64,000 nucleotides of DNA from Bacillota bacterium (GCA_050951805.1 JBMNJT010000002.1:1440001-1504000), one strand, 5' to 3'; counted from the stretch's first letter, positions 51,856 to 58,223 are shown. A program made the numbers and translations. Notes: generated from the letters alone by a model not told the origin.

Positions 51856-53154
51856 CTAGCGCGTCCAGAAATGCGCCTCGCCGTACTCTATCTCCAGATC
51901 TCCTATGCGCACGATATCTCCTTCAACAGCTCCGGCCTTCCTAAGCTCATCTACGATTCCCGCCTTGGCCAACATAGCCCAGAATCGCCCGTAAGCTTCA
52001 ACGTTATCCATGTCAGTCATCTGGCATAGACGTTCTACGCCCTCGCCTGACAGCACATAGACATCGCCATCCCGTTCAACCACGGTATCTCTCAGCCTAG
52101 AACCACGTTGGGTGTACACCCTTGCTTCCTCTTCAGGCTCAACCAGAATGTCATCAGGCGGGATCTTGGCCAATACATCAGCAACTGCGTACAGCAGGCT
52201 CTGGACGCCTTCGCCAGTCAACGCCGATATGGGAAACACCTGGACGTCTTCTTTTTCGAGCACATCCGAAAAAGCCCTAGCCCGATCAGAAGCCCCCGGC
52301 ATGTCCACCTTATTCGCTGCAACAATCTCTGGTTTCACCGGCAAATCAGGATGGTAGAGCTCAAGTTCGCGCCTGATAGTTCGATAATCCTCAAGAGGAT
52401 CGCGCCCTGACTCTTCTGATACATCAACGACGTGAACAAGAACCCGCGTCCTCATAATGTGGCGCAAGAACTCGTGTCCCAAGCCTATACCCTCCGCCGC
52501 ACCCTCGATAAGCCCAGGAATGTCCGCCACAACAAAGCTTTTGTCCGCTAGATCCACAACGCCCAGGATTGGGCTGAGGGTTGTGAATGGATAATCCGCA
52601 ATCTTTGGCCGAGCAGAAGAAATCTTTGACAGCAACGTGGATTTCCCCGCGTTGGGGTATCCAATGAGCCCCACATCTGCCAACAACCGAAGCTCAAGCA
52701 CGAGTCGGCGTTCCTCGCCAAGCTCTCCCTTCTCAGCAAAACGCGGCGTCCTCCGCACCGATGTCGCGAACCGAGCATTTCCACGCCCCCCTGCCCCGCC
52801 TCTGGCCAAGAATGCCCTCTGCCCATGGACAACAAGATCGGCCACCATCTCACCTGTCTCCGCGTCCCTCACAATAGTTCCAACTGGGACTTTAATGATG
52901 AGATCTTCGCCTGCCGCGCCAGTCATCTTGCTGCCGCCACCACGGGCGCCGTTCTTTGCGCGGAGATGCTTCCGGTAACGAAAGTCCGTCAGCGTCGTCA
53001 AAGCCTTGTCCGCCTCCGCGATGACGCTTCCGCCATTGCCACCGTCTCCCCCTGAAGGGCCGCCCCGCGGAACATACTTTTCCCGCCTGAATGCGACCTC
53101 GCCGTGGCCACCATCTCCGCCACGAACGCATATTTCGACTAAATCAACAAACAT
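51856..53154 (-). CDS. obgE: GTPase ObgE
   Basis: FRREKYVP.GGP.GGDGG, GYPNAGKST, YPFTT, DIPG, NKVD. Confidence 0.97.
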   Translation of the reverse strand: MFVDLVEICVRGGDGGHGEVAFRREKYVPRGGPSGGDGGNGGSVIAEADKALTTLTDFRYRKHLRAKNGARGGGSKMTGAAGEDLIIKVPVGTIVRDAETGEMVADLVVHGQRAFLARGGAGGRGNARFATSVRRTPRFAEKGELGEERRLVLELRLLADVGLIGYPNAGKSTLLSKISSARPKIADYPFTTLSPILGVVDLADKSFVVADIPGLIEGAAEGIGLGHEFLRHIMRTRVLVHVVDVSEESGRDPLEDYRTIRRELELYHPDLPVKPEIVAANKVDMPGASDRARAFSDVLEKEDVQVFPISALTGEGVQSLLYAVADVLAKIPPDDILVEPEEEARVYTQRGSRLRDTVVERDGDVYVLSGEGVERLCQMTDMDNVEAYGRFWAMLAKAGIVDELRKAGAVEGDIVRIGDLEIEYGEAHFWTR

Positions 53155-53566
53155 GTCAACTGCTCTCCTTGCCCGCACGCCCCTACATATTCGGAGGAAC
53201 TGTGAACCGAAAAGCCACAGCCCCTGCAATCAACCTCCAGGCTGGCCTCGCCTGACCAAACACGATCCAGGCCCATACGTTACTTCGCGGGCTCCAATAC
53301 GCGCTCGCCTACGATCAACCGACCATCGAAGAGTTTGAGGAGGTCGGACGACGTCTGCCCGATTACACTGATCGCCTGCAACGCGCGTCTTCTAATTCTA
53401 CATCGCTGCATAGTCTTCCTTCAATGCAGCGCATCTATGGCAGATGCCTGACCCTGGTTTGCCAGTCTGCGCGCACCGCGCAAACATGCGTCCGACTGCC
53501 AATCCACCCCAACCCGCGCGGGGGACACGCATACCAGCAACGTTGTCTCCGCTGTCAGCGACGTTG

Positions 53567-54334
53567 TTAGCCCCAAAAACTATCAGTGTCAACGTTTGCC
53601 GTATCCACATCTACGTTCAAGTCAACGGCCTCAAGCCTTCGCTCCCGGGACAGCCTGCTCATTTCGACCGCAAAAGCTGCGTAATTCAGGGACCAATGCG
53701 CTATCCACGGGTATGCCAAGCCGCCACTTTCCACCGTGATCCACCCTAAGGCAAGGCCCACAGTGATGGGCATGAGGAGTGCGTACGAGGTAATGCTGTT
53801 AGGAGCTTCCACTAAAGCCATTGGAATCCCATGAACCAGTCCGAACAAAACCGCCTGCACAACTAGGCCATTTGAAAGGCTGCTCCGTTTCGATATGGTG
53901 CGGAGCAGAAAGCCCCTGAACACGATCTCTTCAAGAAGAGCGCCCGAGGCTATAAAGGGAACCGCAAGAACGAGAGCAGTCCATTTTGGCATGCCGGAGA
54001 GAGCAAGGTACGCCCCTCCCGGGTTGATGCCAGCACCCTTCATCCATTCGCCGTGCGATTGCCGGAGCCTAGCATGTGCCCACAGATTTGCCAAGCCTGC
54101 CACCACAACAATCAGCCCGGTGTAAACCGCCATTTCCCAACTTGCCATGCCCTCCACTATTCGTAAAGAGTTGGCCGGATCCTCTCTTCGCACGATCCAG
54201 ACCCCTGCGAAGATAGTCAGAAGCAGGATGTCTCCCAGATCGACTCCTGGTTGTCCACGTTCATGAAGTTTTTGCGCATATGCCCTTACAGCTACCGAGA
54301 TGCCTACGATGATGTAACAAATGACTGAGCTCAT
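53567..54334 (-). CDS. CPBP/Abi (type II CAAX) intramembrane protease
   Basis: EEIVFRG, FGLVH, AHWSLN motifs; multiple TM helices; ATGA overlap with the radical SAM gene. Confidence 0.88.
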   Translation of the reverse strand: MSSVICYIIVGISVAVRAYAQKLHERGQPGVDLGDILLLTIFAGVWIVRREDPANSLRIVEGMASWEMAVYTGLIVVVAGLANLWAHARLRQSHGEWMKGAGINPGGAYLALSGMPKWTALVLAVPFIASGALLEEIVFRGFLLRTISKRSSLSNGLVVQAVLFGLVHGIPMALVEAPNSITSYALLMPITVGLALGWITVESGGLAYPWIAHWSLNYAAFAVEMSRLSRERRLEAVDLNVDVDTANVDTDSFWG

Positions 54335-55794
54335 AGCATGGCAACCTCTGACAGAGCTCGCAGCAGATTAGACGACGTCGTACGGGAATCATCCCACGTC
54401 CATAGAATGCTGGATATAAAGATTCTATATGCTTCACACATCGGATCACGCCCGTACAGACTTCCGCTCGCTGCATACGCGGCAGCCCTGCAGCCCCCTC
54501 CGCACAAGTAGCGAACATCGCATTCGACGCAACCTTCTATTCGATCAACCCCAGGAACGTCCCAGAAAAGCTCCTTCAGATCCCCACGGCCGCAAGCGTG
54601 AGCCTCCTCAACTCTTTTCAGTGTAGGCCGCCGAGGCGGCTCAGAAATGTCGTAAAGAGTAGCCGCAAACTCTGGAATCATCAGAAGATGGCATGGGTAT
54701 GCATTGCCTGCCCCCGAGAGTGCAAAAACCTTCGACCCCGCCCCACACCCTTCTCTCGGGACTAGCCCCACTACATCTTCGAACGACGAATCCTCCGGCA
54801 AAGCATTCCTGTGGCACGCCCTCAGAAGATAGCGCAACATCGCCTCCGCAAGATCCTTCGGACACTTCCTGCGTCCTTTTAGCCGTGAACATGCTCCTCG
54901 ACCAACCTCCTGAAAAAGGCTGGCATGGAATGTCGCTCCATGCTTCGATGCAAGCTCAATCATGTCGTCTGGATTGAATGTCGCTGGGTCAACAATGGTT
55001 GACACAAGCTCAACGTGCTCTGTACCGGCACGCACGAGCCTCTCGATGCCCCTAATCGCCGCCTTGAAGCTTCCTTCGCCCCTGATCATATCGTGTGCAG
55101 CCTCATCCCCTGAATCTATGCTCACCTGGACACAGACCCCCAGAGAGGCTATTGCTTCAGCCATTTCCTGCGTTATCAGTGTAGCATTGGTAGCTAAAAT
55201 CACCTTGGGAGCATTGAATGTTGCCTCCTCGAGCAATACAGGAAGATCTGCCCTGAGAGTAGGTTCACCCCCAGTGATCATCAGCTCCGCCGGACGAAAC
55301 ATCCCTGCCTCTCGTATTGTCCAAAGCACTGACTCAGTTGGGGCGTCGTTTTCGAAAGCATGTCTGTAGCATGTCTCACAGTATAGATTGCACCTGTCCG
55401 TAACGGAAACATATATCCTAGCAGGCGCGGCACAAACCTGAGCGGCCCTTTTTTCTGCCGCCGCTACGTCCGATTTTCCGCCTCCATTCCAGGGCCCGTA
55501 GACGAGCAATCCTCGGGCTTCCAAGTCGCGCATCAACCCCAATAAGCCATCTAGCGTCTCCTTTCCGTAAGCCGGCCCTACAGAATCAGTTATTCCTTGA
55601 ATATCGACTCCGAGGAACCTCTCGCACATCACGCCTGCATAACGGCTGACCTTCACCCAAGTTCCGAGCGTCGGATTGAGAATGAGACAAGCTTCATCTG
55701 CATGAATCATCCGTGCATCCGGCGCTAGAGAGTATCCCAACAATTCGGAGTTCATCAGCGAAAAGGCGGTTGCGCCCCGCCAACATCGGGCCAC
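54331..55794 (-). CDS. Radical SAM/SPASM peptide maturase with N-terminal RRE-like domain
   Basis: CNLYCETC, TGGEP, SIDS; SPASM CGAG..YPC..CVECDVRYLCGGGC..C; N-terminal ~100 aa with a three-strand/three-helix pattern ending L..RGLL. Confidence 0.88.
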   Translation of the reverse strand: MARCWRGATAFSLMNSELLGYSLAPDARMIHADEACLILNPTLGTWVKVSRYAGVMCERFLGVDIQGITDSVGPAYGKETLDGLLGLMRDLEARGLLVYGPWNGGGKSDVAAAEKRAAQVCAAPARIYVSVTDRCNLYCETCYRHAFENDAPTESVLWTIREAGMFRPAELMITGGEPTLRADLPVLLEEATFNAPKVILATNATLITQEMAEAIASLGVCVQVSIDSGDEAAHDMIRGEGSFKAAIRGIERLVRAGTEHVELVSTIVDPATFNPDDMIELASKHGATFHASLFQEVGRGACSRLKGRRKCPKDLAEAMLRYLLRACHRNALPEDSSFEDVVGLVPREGCGAGSKVFALSGAGNAYPCHLLMIPEFAATLYDISEPPRRPTLKRVEEAHACGRGDLKELFWDVPGVDRIEGCVECDVRYLCGGGCRAAAYAASGSLYGRDPMCEAYRIFISSILWTWDDSRTTSSNLLRALSEVAML

Positions 55795-55842
55795 ATCGCC
55801 GCCCTACTCCTCCCTTCAAAGCCACAGCGCGCGCACATAGGC

Positions 55843-55874
55843 GCGGGAACCAATCTCTTGTGATTGGCCCCCGC
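55843..55874 (-). other. Stem-loop between the precursor gene and the maturase gene
   Basis: GCGGGGGCCAATC-N6-GATTGGTTCCCGC, 13 bp, no U-tail. Confidence 0.6.
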
Positions 55875-55937
55875 TGGCACAGTTGGAGCTACGCCCGCTA
55901 ATGGATGATGGTGACTAGTAGTCTGGGGAAACGAAGA

Positions 55938-56039
55938 TCATCCAATGGTGAGCATCACGCCCCAAAGCGGAAACGAAAAGCAGAAGCTGTTGACAGAGAC
56001 ATTCAACCTATGCTTACGACCTGCCTGAATGCGAAACAT
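55938..56039 (-). CDS. Putative RiPP precursor peptide, 33 aa (MFRIQAGRKHRLNVSVNSFCFSFPLWGVMLTIG)
   Basis: Strong GGAGGTGA SD 5 nt before ATG; directly upstream of the RRE-rSAM gene; basic leader with hydrophobic/aromatic core. Confidence 0.7.
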   Translation of the reverse strand: MFRIQAGRKHRLNVSVNSFCFSFPLWGVMLTIG

Positions 56040-56154
56040 CCATTTCACCTCCCTCGATGCTACAATCGGGTAGATGGCGACCACGCCACGGCGCCGCTTG
56101 CACCCACATAGTACCATCGCAGGGAGCTTAAGGGTATTGCCCGAAAGGATGATT

Positions 56155-56673
56155 TTACGGGCTAGGAGGAGGTGACCAGCTGTCCAACAATCCGGCAGCA
56201 ACCGCCAGCCTGACTGCCGACCCCCGGGTGTGCACTCCCAGTTTTTGATATATCGAACGAATGTGAGTTTTGACGGTATTTATCGAGATGAACATCTCCT
56301 CAGCTATTGCCCTATTGGTCTTGCCCTGAGCAAGAAGGTTCATCACTTCAGTTTCGGTAGGGGTTAACCTCGGAAATTCTCGCTCCTCAATGGACGAAAG
56401 CTCGACATCATACTCTGCTAAAGCAATATCAATTCCTTCGTCGGATGGCTCAGCCCCAAATTCCTCCCCCCTCGCTAGAGGATATACGCACAGCAGGAAC
56501 ATCCCTGCCGCATCTGCAAACGCAGGAAGCCTGCCCCGCATCAATACTGGGCTGCGCAAGGCGGCGGCATGAGTCTCTCTGCAGTGCAATCCCGAATTCT
56601 CAAATGGTCCAGACGGTTCAAACTCCAAAGGCCCAACTTCACCACGAACCGAACGTCCCCCTGAGCTCGACAT
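56155..56673 (-). CDS. LuxR/NarL-type HTH regulator without a recognisable receiver domain
   Basis: LTPTETEVMNLLAQGKTNRAIAEEMFISINTVKTHIRSIYQKLGV; GGAGGGGG SD. Confidence 0.88.
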   Translation of the reverse strand: MSSSGGRSVRGEVGPLEFEPSGPFENSGLHCRETHAAALRSPVLMRGRLPAFADAAGMFLLCVYPLARGEEFGAEPSDEGIDIALAEYDVELSSIEEREFPRLTPTETEVMNLLAQGKTNRAIAEEMFISINTVKTHIRSIYQKLGVHTRGSAVRLAVAAGLLDSWSPPPSP

Positions 56674-57390
56674 GGAAAATCCCCCCTCCTTATGAATTTC
56701 CGTCGCCTAGAAAGCAATCCAAGAAGAATCGTGCCCCTTATGACAACAATCACCATAAAGAGTATAGCATCCCATGCGTTACCAGTCAAACATTCCCTAA
56801 TCTAGGCTCTGTTACCTGCTTTCGATGGACTTCGATGTATTCCTCAGTCGAACGTATTATCTTGTGGAAAGCCTCATACTGATTAGGATAGACGTCCAGT
56901 CCAACGATTTCGAGGCCTCCGCTACTCGTCCCCGTCCATTGGCGTGCAGAAGCTCCGCCTTGTAGCTCCGGCTACATCGCCCCGGCGGGTGGACCACCTG
57001 ATTAAGTGCCGACAGGAATAACATGCCGTAGCGCCTGGCCAAGAGATCATAACCGACCTCTGAGCCAGGCACAAGGGAATGCGTAGTAAGTGATCATGTC
57101 TTTTACACGGTTCTCGGCATCTGGTTTCGGCACATGAACCCCAGCGGGTTTCGAAGACCAGACATGTATCGCGCGAAAGTCAACAGAAGTCCATCCGGCC
57201 CCTCAGATGAGTTTCGCCTAAAAGCCGCCATATCCATATCTCCCCCACAGCGTCACAAACCTGCTACTTACACAGGTTACGTGGAAACCCCGCTACTGCG
57301 TAGGGTCGGGGAGCACCCTATAAACAGGCTAGCTTGAAGCCGTCCTCGTCCTTCCTACGTGGAATTACTTCTCATTGGCAGGCCAAAACT

Positions 57391-57720
57391 TCAAAAACCT
57401 GTCAGCGAATACTGTGGCTGCAGAAGATAGAGGTCGCATTCATCCTGGAAGAGCACGTGATTTCCAGCCGCTGGTGAACTCAGGGCCTCCGTGATTGCGT
57501 CCATTTTGGCCATCGCCTGCAGATCATATACTCGTTTTGACGCATGCGGTGGGCGACTATGCCGATATCCAAGAGATTTCAGTAGGTTATACATCATGGC
57601 TAAACTGATTTCGACGCCATGTTTTCATAGACACTGAACATCCGCGCTATCTTGGTAATGCACCAGCCCAGGCTCGAAATCAAAACCATCTGGGCACTCA
57701 GTGATACTTCTTCTGCGCAT
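57391..57720 (-). pseudogene. IS630-family transposase remnant
   Basis: Frameshifted pieces: AQMVLISSLGWCITKIARMF (HTH), KHGVEISLAMMYNLLKSLGYRHSRP (winged HTH), VLFQDE (first catalytic Asp), then a stop. Confidence 0.65.
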
Positions 57721-58223
57721 GGCCCAAAACATTGAAACCTCGCACTTGCCAAATTCTCTTGCAAATCGCATTTACACTGTGCTTCCTGTCACCATATAGG
57801 CGCTTTCAGGCATTACAGAGCACAGTCAAAAACCACGCAGGACAGGCGGTGATAGATGTCGGCATACAACGGGTGCTAAAGGCCTTTCAGACTATCCGAT
57901 GAAGTAGCTTGGCCGAGCATCTCTGGTTCTTGTAGCAACACCCTTAACATTGATTAAAAAAGACAGGGAAACATCCCCTGCCTACTCGTATTCCGGCAAG
58001 GACAGTTGGATGGGAAACCCTTGCAAAGTCAGTTCCCATCAACCCCCTGCTTTTCTTCATATCCCTTCGTCTTCCCACAGCATCCTAGACTGACGCGCAC
58101 CACGGCCTGAGATACCCACCCGAGGCAAACCCTTCATGCCTAGTCTAGGCGCGAAGGCCTCACCGGGGTGTAGCTTCGTTCTATCGACACAGACCGCGTT
58201 CTGGCATGATCGTTCAAAGGAGC

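Follow-up and report, generated by a model that had tools for sequence, protein, structure and literature searches.

A conserved four-gene cassette of uncultured Bacillota that probably makes a radical SAM-modified peptide of an undescribed family

Here, we describe a gene cassette in a stretch of 64,000 nt (hereafter the window) from a Bacillota bacterium (GCA_050951805.1 JBMNJT010000002.1:1440001-1504000). At positions 53567-56673, four co-directional open reading frames (ORFs) on the minus strand encode, in this order, a LuxR/GerE-type regulator, a peptide of 33 codons, a radical S-adenosylmethionine (SAM) enzyme of the SPASM type and a CPBP membrane protease (Table 1). We consider it probable that this cassette makes a ribosomally made, post-translationally modified peptide (RiPP) by the steps proposed below and that the product serves a conserved physiological role. 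The cassette appears to represent an undescribed, previously unnamed family of radical SAM RiPPs, the chemistry and biological role of which we infer. A search of the open full-text literature, the scope of which did not extend to subscription journals and supplements, returned no description of this combination of radical SAM enzyme, peptide and CPBP protein.

Conservation of the peptide gene

The 33-codon ORF is a real gene. An earlier reading of the window, made from the sequence alone (hereafter the original prediction), had singled it out as a short ORF with a strong Shine-Dalgarno sequence, and both parts of this claim hold: the peptide reads as then written, and GGGAGGTG lies 6 nt before its ATG. 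The peptide combines a basic N-terminal half with a hydrophobic C-terminal half and contains a single Cys. A tally of 68 loci yielded 35 distinct peptides in 37 distinct DNA versions, all 37 of which have 33 codons without an indel. Start codons vary among these versions (ATG 22, GTG 14, ATC 1), as do the stop codons (TAG 14, TAA 12, TGA 11), which always occupy the same position. The 16 distinct DNA versions from the class of the window are likewise free of indels, with variable sites distributed 25/16/31 over the three positions of 32 codons. Their median dN/dS ratio (NG86 method), computable in 65 of 120 pairs, is 0.21.

Because the 68-locus tally was bound to a regular expression that required F/Y2, G7, C20, F23, W26, T31 and G33, independent support for the invariant residues comes from an alignment and from a protein library. 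In the alignment (A4; 22 rows assembled from ORF lists and hidden Markov model matches), G7, C20, F23, W26, T31 and the C-terminal G33 are invariant. A further alignment, A3, was made without P0007 and P0012. A peptide profile searched against 1.84 billion representative proteins retrieved 10 clusters at E <= 1e-6; in all of them the match reaches the C-terminus, in one case with a single-residue insertion. Where public records name the peptide at all, it is a "hypothetical protein". Searches with the peptide gave 0 matches in Pfam and NCBIfam (one such search used six queries, three of them without the first residue) and no usable match in the ESM Atlas. We also considered and rejected a longer precursor. 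In some loci, a conserved block 5' of the ATG shares the reading frame of the peptide, but in L001, the closest relative of the window, its frame is a different one and runs into a stop codon; the block is therefore read as promoter and 5' untranslated region and not as coding sequence.

Linkage of the peptide to the radical SAM enzyme

In a set of 5.8 billion proteins, the radical SAM enzyme belongs to a tight family of 12 clusters (46-99% identity, E <= 2e-126), beyond which scores fall to E 4e-24. The conserved short ORF postulated beside homologues of this enzyme is indeed present: the family 33-codon ORF lies directly 5' of the radical SAM gene in 11 of the 12 genome_contigs loci having upstream DNA and in 14 of the 15 loci from the class of the window, the fifteenth being without upstream DNA. 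Conversely, when 185,579 species genomes were searched with a degenerate DNA pattern of the core, 23 sites matched; every one is a full family peptide, and every one is followed by an ORF with the CX3CX2C motif. Adjacency and co-occurrence of peptide and enzyme persist down to about 30% identity of the enzyme. The one exception among the 12 genome_contigs loci was excluded from the family, namely L014 of an Anaerolineales metagenome-assembled genome (MAG), whose enzyme is 32% identical; the family peptide was not seen upstream, and the gene context is another one.

The class of the window comprises 21 species genomes, of which 18 carry the peptide, one copy each, and 20 carry the radical SAM gene. 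In the two genomes with the enzyme but without the peptide, the radical SAM gene is cut at a contig end, and a single genome, 96% complete, has neither. The cassette lies directly upstream of obg in the window and in L004, L006, L008, L011 and L012, while the upstream neighbours vary, which suggests vertical inheritance within the class. The underlying Pfam scan of class neighbourhoods was made without L007 and part of L013, including the downstream ORFs of the latter; L005 and L009 were absent from the ORF list, and the position of obg was not resolved in L010. As side observations in this class, one genome holds a radical SAM homologue with a single in-frame TAG (G016:C30:66997-68355) next to an intact peptide gene, which may reflect a pseudogene, an assembly error or recoding, and in L012 a second, unrelated radical SAM gene (L012:1414-2955; 513 aa; Fer4_12 and Radical_SAM) is located just upstream of the cassette.

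Beyond the class, a phylum sample of 401 genomes contained 24 carriers of the peptide, 13 of them outside the class and from three other families. Eight of these outside loci (L111-L118) were fetched, and all eight show GerE regulator, 33-aa peptide, radical SAM enzyme and CPBP protein in the same order as in the class loci. Their Pfam scan covered 60 of 73 ORFs, leaving out five small ORFs of L112-L117, three outer ORFs of L113-L117 and the last ORF of L118. In 6/8 loci the CPBP gene is followed by genes for an ABC ATPase and an ABC-2 permease. The original prediction had noted that no transporter is present; this is correct for the window, where obg follows the CPBP gene, but not for these relatives, so that the absence of a transporter is a trait of the class and not of the family. 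Instead of obg, a gene for a UPF0182 membrane protein was counted beyond the cassette in 7/8 loci, with none found in L112 or L116; in L111, an ORF without Pfam match lies between the ABC ATPase and UPF0182 genes. In L113 and L117, the cassette adjoins a gene for a PrpR-type sigma-54 activator.

Every carrier is an uncultured MAG, the label being Bacillota, Firmicutes or Clostridia in all cases but one, which is labelled Betaproteobacteria. The latter (L131, contig JBLNCC010000124.1) has a complete cassette, the peptide of which is nearly identical to those of the Bacillota loci L117 and L139; the contig is therefore probably mis-binned. Near-identical DNA occurs in sequencing runs from anaerobic digesters, bioreactors, sludge, sediment and landfill.

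The maturase and its predicted complex with the peptide

The radical SAM ORF can start at GTG 55794 or at ATG 55755, the latter giving 474 aa. Since homologues align from about position 55755, the GTG is probably not the start, and residues are numbered here on the 474-aa form. PF04055 matches all 22 aligned family members, which places them among the radical SAM proteins, and the CX3CX2C motif (C122, C126, C129) is invariant in 22/22. The same holds for seven C-terminal Cys (C337, C355, C409, C412, C418, C422, C440), including a CX2CX5CX3C block, and this seven-Cys pattern bears out the assignment as a SPASM enzyme; the Pfam SPASM model matches only 6/22 sequences, without the copy of the window.

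The RRE-like N-terminus of the original prediction, a candidate fused RiPP recognition element (RRE), fared less evenly. Such a domain is a PqqD-like winged helix of three strands and three helices, to which the leader adds as a further strand. The Pfam PqqD model matches 4/22 homologues (best E 1.2e-7) but misses the copy of the window. On the other side, a profile comparison with solved structures ranked CteB (5wgg) best (E 7.8e-18), followed by SkfB (3.6e-16), TigE and PqqE, and the CteB alignment starts in the N-terminal peptide-binding domain of that enzyme and extends over the SAM core and the two Cys blocks of SPASM. In the AlphaFold2 (AF2) model, residues 19-93 form strands and then three helices at moderate confidence (block pLDDT 56-86), and the top Foldseek matches of this model are SkfB (E 9.4e-10), TigE, SuiB and CteB. 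TigE is described as a cyclopropylglycine synthase (PMC10878394). As the nearest enzymes span several chemistries, homology does not fix the reaction.

Support for the RRE-like domain also comes from co-folding of enzyme and peptide, both supplied as alignments, together with SAM and three 4Fe-4S clusters. The interface score ipSAE was 0.83 (runs 0.84, 0.83, 0.82), and the best control reached 0.00. The mark applied to this score is passed by 116/157 solved complexes and by 2/215 mismatched pairs; as the complexes SuiB-SuiA and ChlB-ChlA have been solved, a pass may reflect likeness to them and not binding in this particular copy. The runs share at least 64% of contacts, with a pLDDT of at least 56 for the partner. 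In the predicted complex, peptide residues 4-8 pair with the enzyme strand 32-37, which holds an invariant Trp, and also contact the helix 70-77 and a conserved C-terminal W-x-W (454-456), while residues 18-33 occupy the catalytic cleft, next to the barrel and the Cys blocks of SPASM. This pose is that of solved RRE-maturase complexes, with the leader on the RRE. The co-fold speaks for binding of the peptide by the radical SAM enzyme, and it predicts that the leader docks onto the RRE.

The protease and the regulator

The CPBP gene is translationally coupled to the radical SAM gene, as originally proposed: an ATGA at 54331-54334 comprises the stop codon of the latter and the start codon of the former, overlapping by 4 nt. 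CPBP proteases are defined by the motifs EExxxR, FxxxH and HxxxN. All three (E135, E136, R140, F164, H168, H213, N217) are invariant in 14/14 homologues and, together with the PF02517 match, identify the protein as a CPBP/Rce1-like protein; with its catalytic motifs invariant, an active protease is plausible. A CPBP gene also follows the radical SAM gene in L001, L007, L010, L089 and L094.

The LuxR-type helix-turn-helix (HTH) gene reported directly upstream is present as well, with PF00196 placing its product among the LuxR/GerE HTH proteins. A GerE protein is encoded directly upstream of the peptide in the seven class loci having a Pfam match and in 8/8 loci outside the class. An alignment of 15 regulators shows conservation in the HTH alone. 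For the N-terminal region of about 100 aa no family was found, and neither an autoinducer-binding domain nor a receiver domain was detected in the regulator of the window; a partial receiver domain is present in the regulators of two sister loci.

Relationship to known peptide-modifying systems

The original prediction had regarded the core as unlike the SCIFF, subtilosin, mycofactocin, PQQ and streptide precursors, and comparisons with curated models agree with this view. In addition to the peptide, which has no database match, no NCBIfam model reaches its cut-off with the radical SAM enzyme of the window: the best, MftC, scores 102 bits against 265 (residues 122-453), followed by StsB (100.5/625) and WgkB (97.8/650); PqqE reaches 51.5/381. 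For radical SAM enzymes of the sister lineages, the values are at most 148.8/625 for StsB, at most 139.9/265 for MftC, 73.4/300 for SkfB and 72.6/425 for the SCIFF maturase. By sequence, the closest enzymes are the thioether-forming CteB, StsB and SkfB as well as MftC, whereas by architecture the closest system is skf of Bacillus subtilis.

The skf system is described as comprising a precursor, the radical SAM enzyme SkfB, a putative protease SkfC and SkfE/F for export or resistance (PMC8172795), and the order precursor, radical SAM enzyme, membrane protease and, in the sister lineages, ABC ATPase and permease is shared with that system as described there. The sporulation killing factor (SKF) also has a single thioether donor Cys, and SkfB ranks first by Foldseek and second by profile comparison. 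In contrast, the SkfB model TIGR04403 stays far below its cut-off in the sister-lineage enzyme and is not among the best 25 families for that of the window, which argues against membership. The precursor described here is unrelated, with 33 aa and one Cys, and lacks a second Cys pair for a disulfide. SkfG and an SkfH-like thioredoxin were not seen, the cassette comes with a LuxR regulator, and in the class of the window it is vertically conserved and without a transporter.

With CteB and the SCIFF system, the cassette shares the best profile match among solved structures and a short conserved peptide beside housekeeping genes, and its putative RRE would likewise be fused. The SCIFF maturase model TIGR03974 covers the SPASM end only, however, and the single Cys differs from the six in the SCIFF precursor of about 45 residues, so that the cassette falls outside this family. 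Mycofactocin is similar in that MftC is the top NCBIfam match of the enzyme and both precursors are short and very conserved, but MftC stays below its cut-off, the putative RRE is fused here instead of residing in a separate MftB, and the C-termini of the peptides differ. At E <= 10, the genome yields nothing with the MftA model TIGR03969, and none of MftB, D, E, F and partner dehydrogenases occurs in the loci examined, which places the cassette outside mycofactocin as well. StsB, which stands for a family of sactipeptide maturases (NCBIfam NF045574), is the best or a near-best model for sister-lineage enzymes, aligning over nearly the full length including the N-terminus (141.7-148.8 bits in two and 118.3 in a third), although far from its cut-off of 625 bits and with no related precursor found. 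The pyrroloquinoline quinone (PQQ) system is set apart by the low PqqE score and by a peptide in the window without the Glu and the Tyr that are linked in PqqA, and the streptide (KxxxW)/WGK families, in which a core Lys is joined to the Trp, by the low WgkB score and the absence of Lys at residues 12-33 of the window's peptide; the cassette belongs to neither. As an indirect argument, the single invariant Cys and the thioether-forming nearest enzymes would fit a thioether of the sactipeptide type, with the Cys sulfur on an alpha carbon of another residue, or of the ranthipeptide type, with the sulfur on a beta or gamma carbon.

Promoter-like sites, hairpins and genomic surroundings

The coordinates of genes and putative regulatory features are listed in Table 1.

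Table 1. Genes and putative regulatory elements of the cassette (positions in the window).
Feature	Position	Strand	Evidence
LuxR/GerE-family HTH regulator, 172 aa	56155-56673	-	Pfam GerE PF00196 E 4.6e-20, residues 103-157
Putative precursor peptide gene, 33 codons + stop	55938-56039	-	Constant length, dN/dS 0.21, invariant residues
Radical SAM/SPASM maturase, RRE-like N-terminus, 487 aa	54331-55794	-	Radical_SAM PF04055 E 3.4e-22
CPBP (Rce1-like) intramembrane glutamic protease, 255 aa	53567-54334	-	Pfam PF02517 E 3.4e-15
Shine-Dalgarno sequence GGGAGGTG	56046-56053	-	6 nt 5' of peptide ATG; GGAGGTG kept in 12 aligned loci
Sigma-70-like site TTGACT-17-TATACT, TG before -10	56761-56789	-	Upstream of LuxR gene; 10/12 consensus matches
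Near-palindromic box GGGCAATACCC	56132-56142	-	GGGTAATACCC in relatives; alignment of 12 upstream regions
Putative extended -10-like element TGgTACTAT	56108-56116	-	TGnTAnnAT kept in upstream alignment
13-bp hairpin, no U-tract	55843-55874	-	Between peptide stop and radical SAM gene; -24.2 kcal/mol
Small GC hairpin + T-run	55765-55781	-	Just 5' of likely radical SAM start; terminator-like, possible attenuator

Upstream of the peptide gene, the near-palindromic box has a related counterpart, GGGGAATGG, at the same place in other lineages, where an analogous -10 element is kept too. The box is a candidate regulator site that would overlap the -35 region of the peptide promoter. About 24 nt past it lies the TGnTAnnAT element, which is followed by a conserved stretch (TGGGTGCAAGCGG / TGGGTGCAAGCG); the consensus scan missed this -10-like element because no -35 match is present. 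The scan found four sigma-70-like sites in the region, compared with a shuffle mean of 2.3, so that the site upstream of the LuxR gene is to be read as a consensus match only.

The stem-loop noted after the peptide gene is confirmed as a stable hairpin (z = -3.95; 0/200 shuffles fold as well). In 10/16 loci, the 3' arm carries the motif G[AG]TTGGTTCC and is matched by the 5' arm, and both sides of the stem differ between the window and L001 (AUC/GAU) on the one hand and L004-L009 (ACC/GGU) on the other. The small GC hairpin further downstream is without statistical support, as the terminator scan gave two sites compared with a shuffle mean of 2.9. This hairpin follows a mini-ORF of 13 codons, which starts 9 nt after a strong Shine-Dalgarno sequence and the stop codon of which overlaps the ATG at 55755; the arrangement could serve in attenuation or coupling. 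For the interval 53000-57500, Rfam gave 0 matches at E <= 1, and the conserved non-coding blocks thus represent no described RNA family.

Contigs from RNA libraries of three studies cover the peptide ORF, and one of them spans the LuxR and peptide genes together with the first part of the radical SAM gene; such contigs alone cannot prove transcription or transcript ends. Parts of the radical SAM and CPBP genes are without a covering contig in X18-X20. Depth values apply to whole contigs and do not allow the genes to be ranked. Near the peptide gene, contig ends vary by run (55869 vs 55909, 56081 vs 56071), so that no transcript end can be claimed. One contig, X16, ends at 56731, where adapter sequence takes over; this point lies some 20-30 nt downstream of the promoter-like site of the LuxR gene and gives a weak hint of a 5' end of the LuxR transcript.

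Downstream of the CPBP gene, the window continues with obg, a nadD-like gene and genes for an RRM protein, an HD protein and RsfS. Upstream, an amidohydrolase gene is separated from the cassette by about 1.5 kb (56674-58223), in which the longest ORF does not exceed 71 aa and four ORFs gave 0 matches in a Pfam scan. In L001, the amidohydrolase and LuxR genes are only about 180-300 nt apart, and the interval in the window therefore looks like an insertion or a decayed element. Elsewhere in the same genome, a weak SPASM-like match (G000:C2:1507817-1508065) is located about 3.8 kb past the end of the window.

Proposed pathway and alternative explanations

The analysis supports the original prediction of a RiPP system, whose macrocyclic product, either a signal or an antimicrobial, is still putative. 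We propose that the LuxR-type regulator would act at the conserved box and promoter directly upstream of the precursor gene. In the precursor, the basic residues 1 to about 12 would form the leader, residues 4-8 of which are predicted to add as a strand to the RRE, and the hydrophobic residues 18-33 are predicted to enter the cleft that lies between SAM barrel and SPASM domain. The enzyme would install one cross-link, most likely a thioether from Cys20 to Asp/Asn17, Phe23, Trp26 or Thr31; alternatively, a C-C bond might be formed at Trp26 or Phe23. The coupled CPBP protease would then cut off the leader at the membrane and may also protect the cell. The hairpin 3' of the precursor gene probably stabilises a short transcript or attenuates read-through, which would provide more precursor than enzyme. 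In the sister lineages, the ABC-2 transporter encoded next presumably serves export or self-protection.

Several points weigh against this proposal. A leader of 12-17 residues is short for an RRE-dependent RiPP. The enzyme of the window fails the single-sequence Pfam models for both PqqD and SPASM, its stand-alone AF2 model is mediocre (mean pLDDT 60.8), and the regular expression accounts in part for the invariance of C20, F23, W26, T31 and G33 among the 68 loci tallied. The type of cross-link is a guess, considering that the nearest enzymes perform thioether, Lys-Trp C-C and cyclopropylglycine chemistries. CPBP proteins in bacteriocin loci are often immunity proteins and not proteases. The N-terminal region of the regulator is not conserved, sensing of the peptide by this protein is conjectural, and the box GGGYAATACCC is not enriched (three genome sites vs three for a control pattern), the genome scan giving no sign of a regulon with further sites above the control. 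Finally, the ABC-2 transporter in 6/8 sister loci fits an exported toxin as well as a signal.

The last point leads to the most serious alternative, which we nevertheless regard as somewhat unlikely: the same biosynthesis could yield an antimicrobial, that is, a bacteriocin or cannibalism factor like the sporulation killing factor, with CPBP and ABC-2 proteins mainly in export and immunity. Bacteriocin loci are usually patchy and fast-evolving. The peptide gene, in contrast, is conserved over the whole length at a low dN/dS, and it is single-copy in 18 of the 21 class genomes, where it is syntenic upstream of obg. The window also lacks a transporter, and the SkfB model remains at 73 bits compared with a cut-off of 300. 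The hydrophobic core, the rank of SkfB among structural and profile matches and the gene order in six of the eight sister loci, which mirrors skfA, B, C, E, F as described (PMC8172795), speak for an antimicrobial. Since the gene is kept in the class as one copy of constant length at a single site upstream of obg, with purifying selection acting from end to end, a conserved role in the physiology of the cell, for instance in signalling between cells or as a membrane-active self factor, is somewhat likelier than that of a strain-level weapon.

Two further explanations depart from a modified, secreted product. A role of the peptide as starting material for a small redox cofactor or enzyme prosthetic group, as in PQQ and mycofactocin, with the radical SAM enzyme cross-linking it and the protease trimming the rest, is improbable. 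It would account for MftC as the best NCBIfam match (102 bits, up to 139.9 in a relative) and for a peptide as short, fixed in length and highly conserved as cofactor precursors are. MftA reportedly ends in a conserved motif IDGMCGVY, although this was not found in the text of PMC3023750, and the [SA]-I-D-G-x-C stretch of the peptides resembles that motif. The peptide, however, runs 13 residues beyond the Cys and ends in T-I/V/L-G instead of GVY; MftC stays below its cut-off, the MftA model finds nothing in the genome, and the other Mft proteins and dehydrogenases are missing from the loci. Membrane protease and ABC-2 exporter moreover point outward and not to the cytoplasm. Even more improbable is a small peptide with a membrane or regulatory function, which the enzyme would not use as substrate and which would adjoin it through shared regulation only. 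A C-terminal half hydrophobic enough for a membrane and the missing PqqD match of the enzyme on its own would suit such a peptide; it is opposed by the strict co-occurrence and adjacency down to low enzyme identity, the co-fold score far above the control in the canonical leader-on-RRE pose, and nearest solved enzymes that are peptide maturases. A RiPP with a conserved physiological role thus remains our preferred reading.

Significance of the family

New peptide chemistry has come steadily from radical SAM/SPASM maturases, and so far a new cross-link has tended to accompany each precursor family added. The family described here is well defined, with 35 distinct precursors of identical length and six invariant residues in the 22-row alignment, and it occurs only in uncultured lineages, which are frequent in anaerobic digesters, bioreactors, sludge and landfill. 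The system is small enough for direct testing with two or three genes. A bolder version of our proposal, which we hold to be unlikely at present, combines a new type of cross-link (e.g. between Cys20 or Trp26 and a further invariant position in the tail C-x-x-F-x-x-W-x4-T-x-G) with an autoinducing signal that is read by the adjacent orphan LuxR regulator. If true, this signal reading would constitute a new peptide quorum-sensing circuit in uncultured Bacillota of anaerobic digesters. More generally, a near-universal, syntenic cassette in a whole class may reveal a conserved physiological peptide, perhaps a signal, and not an accessory bacteriocin.

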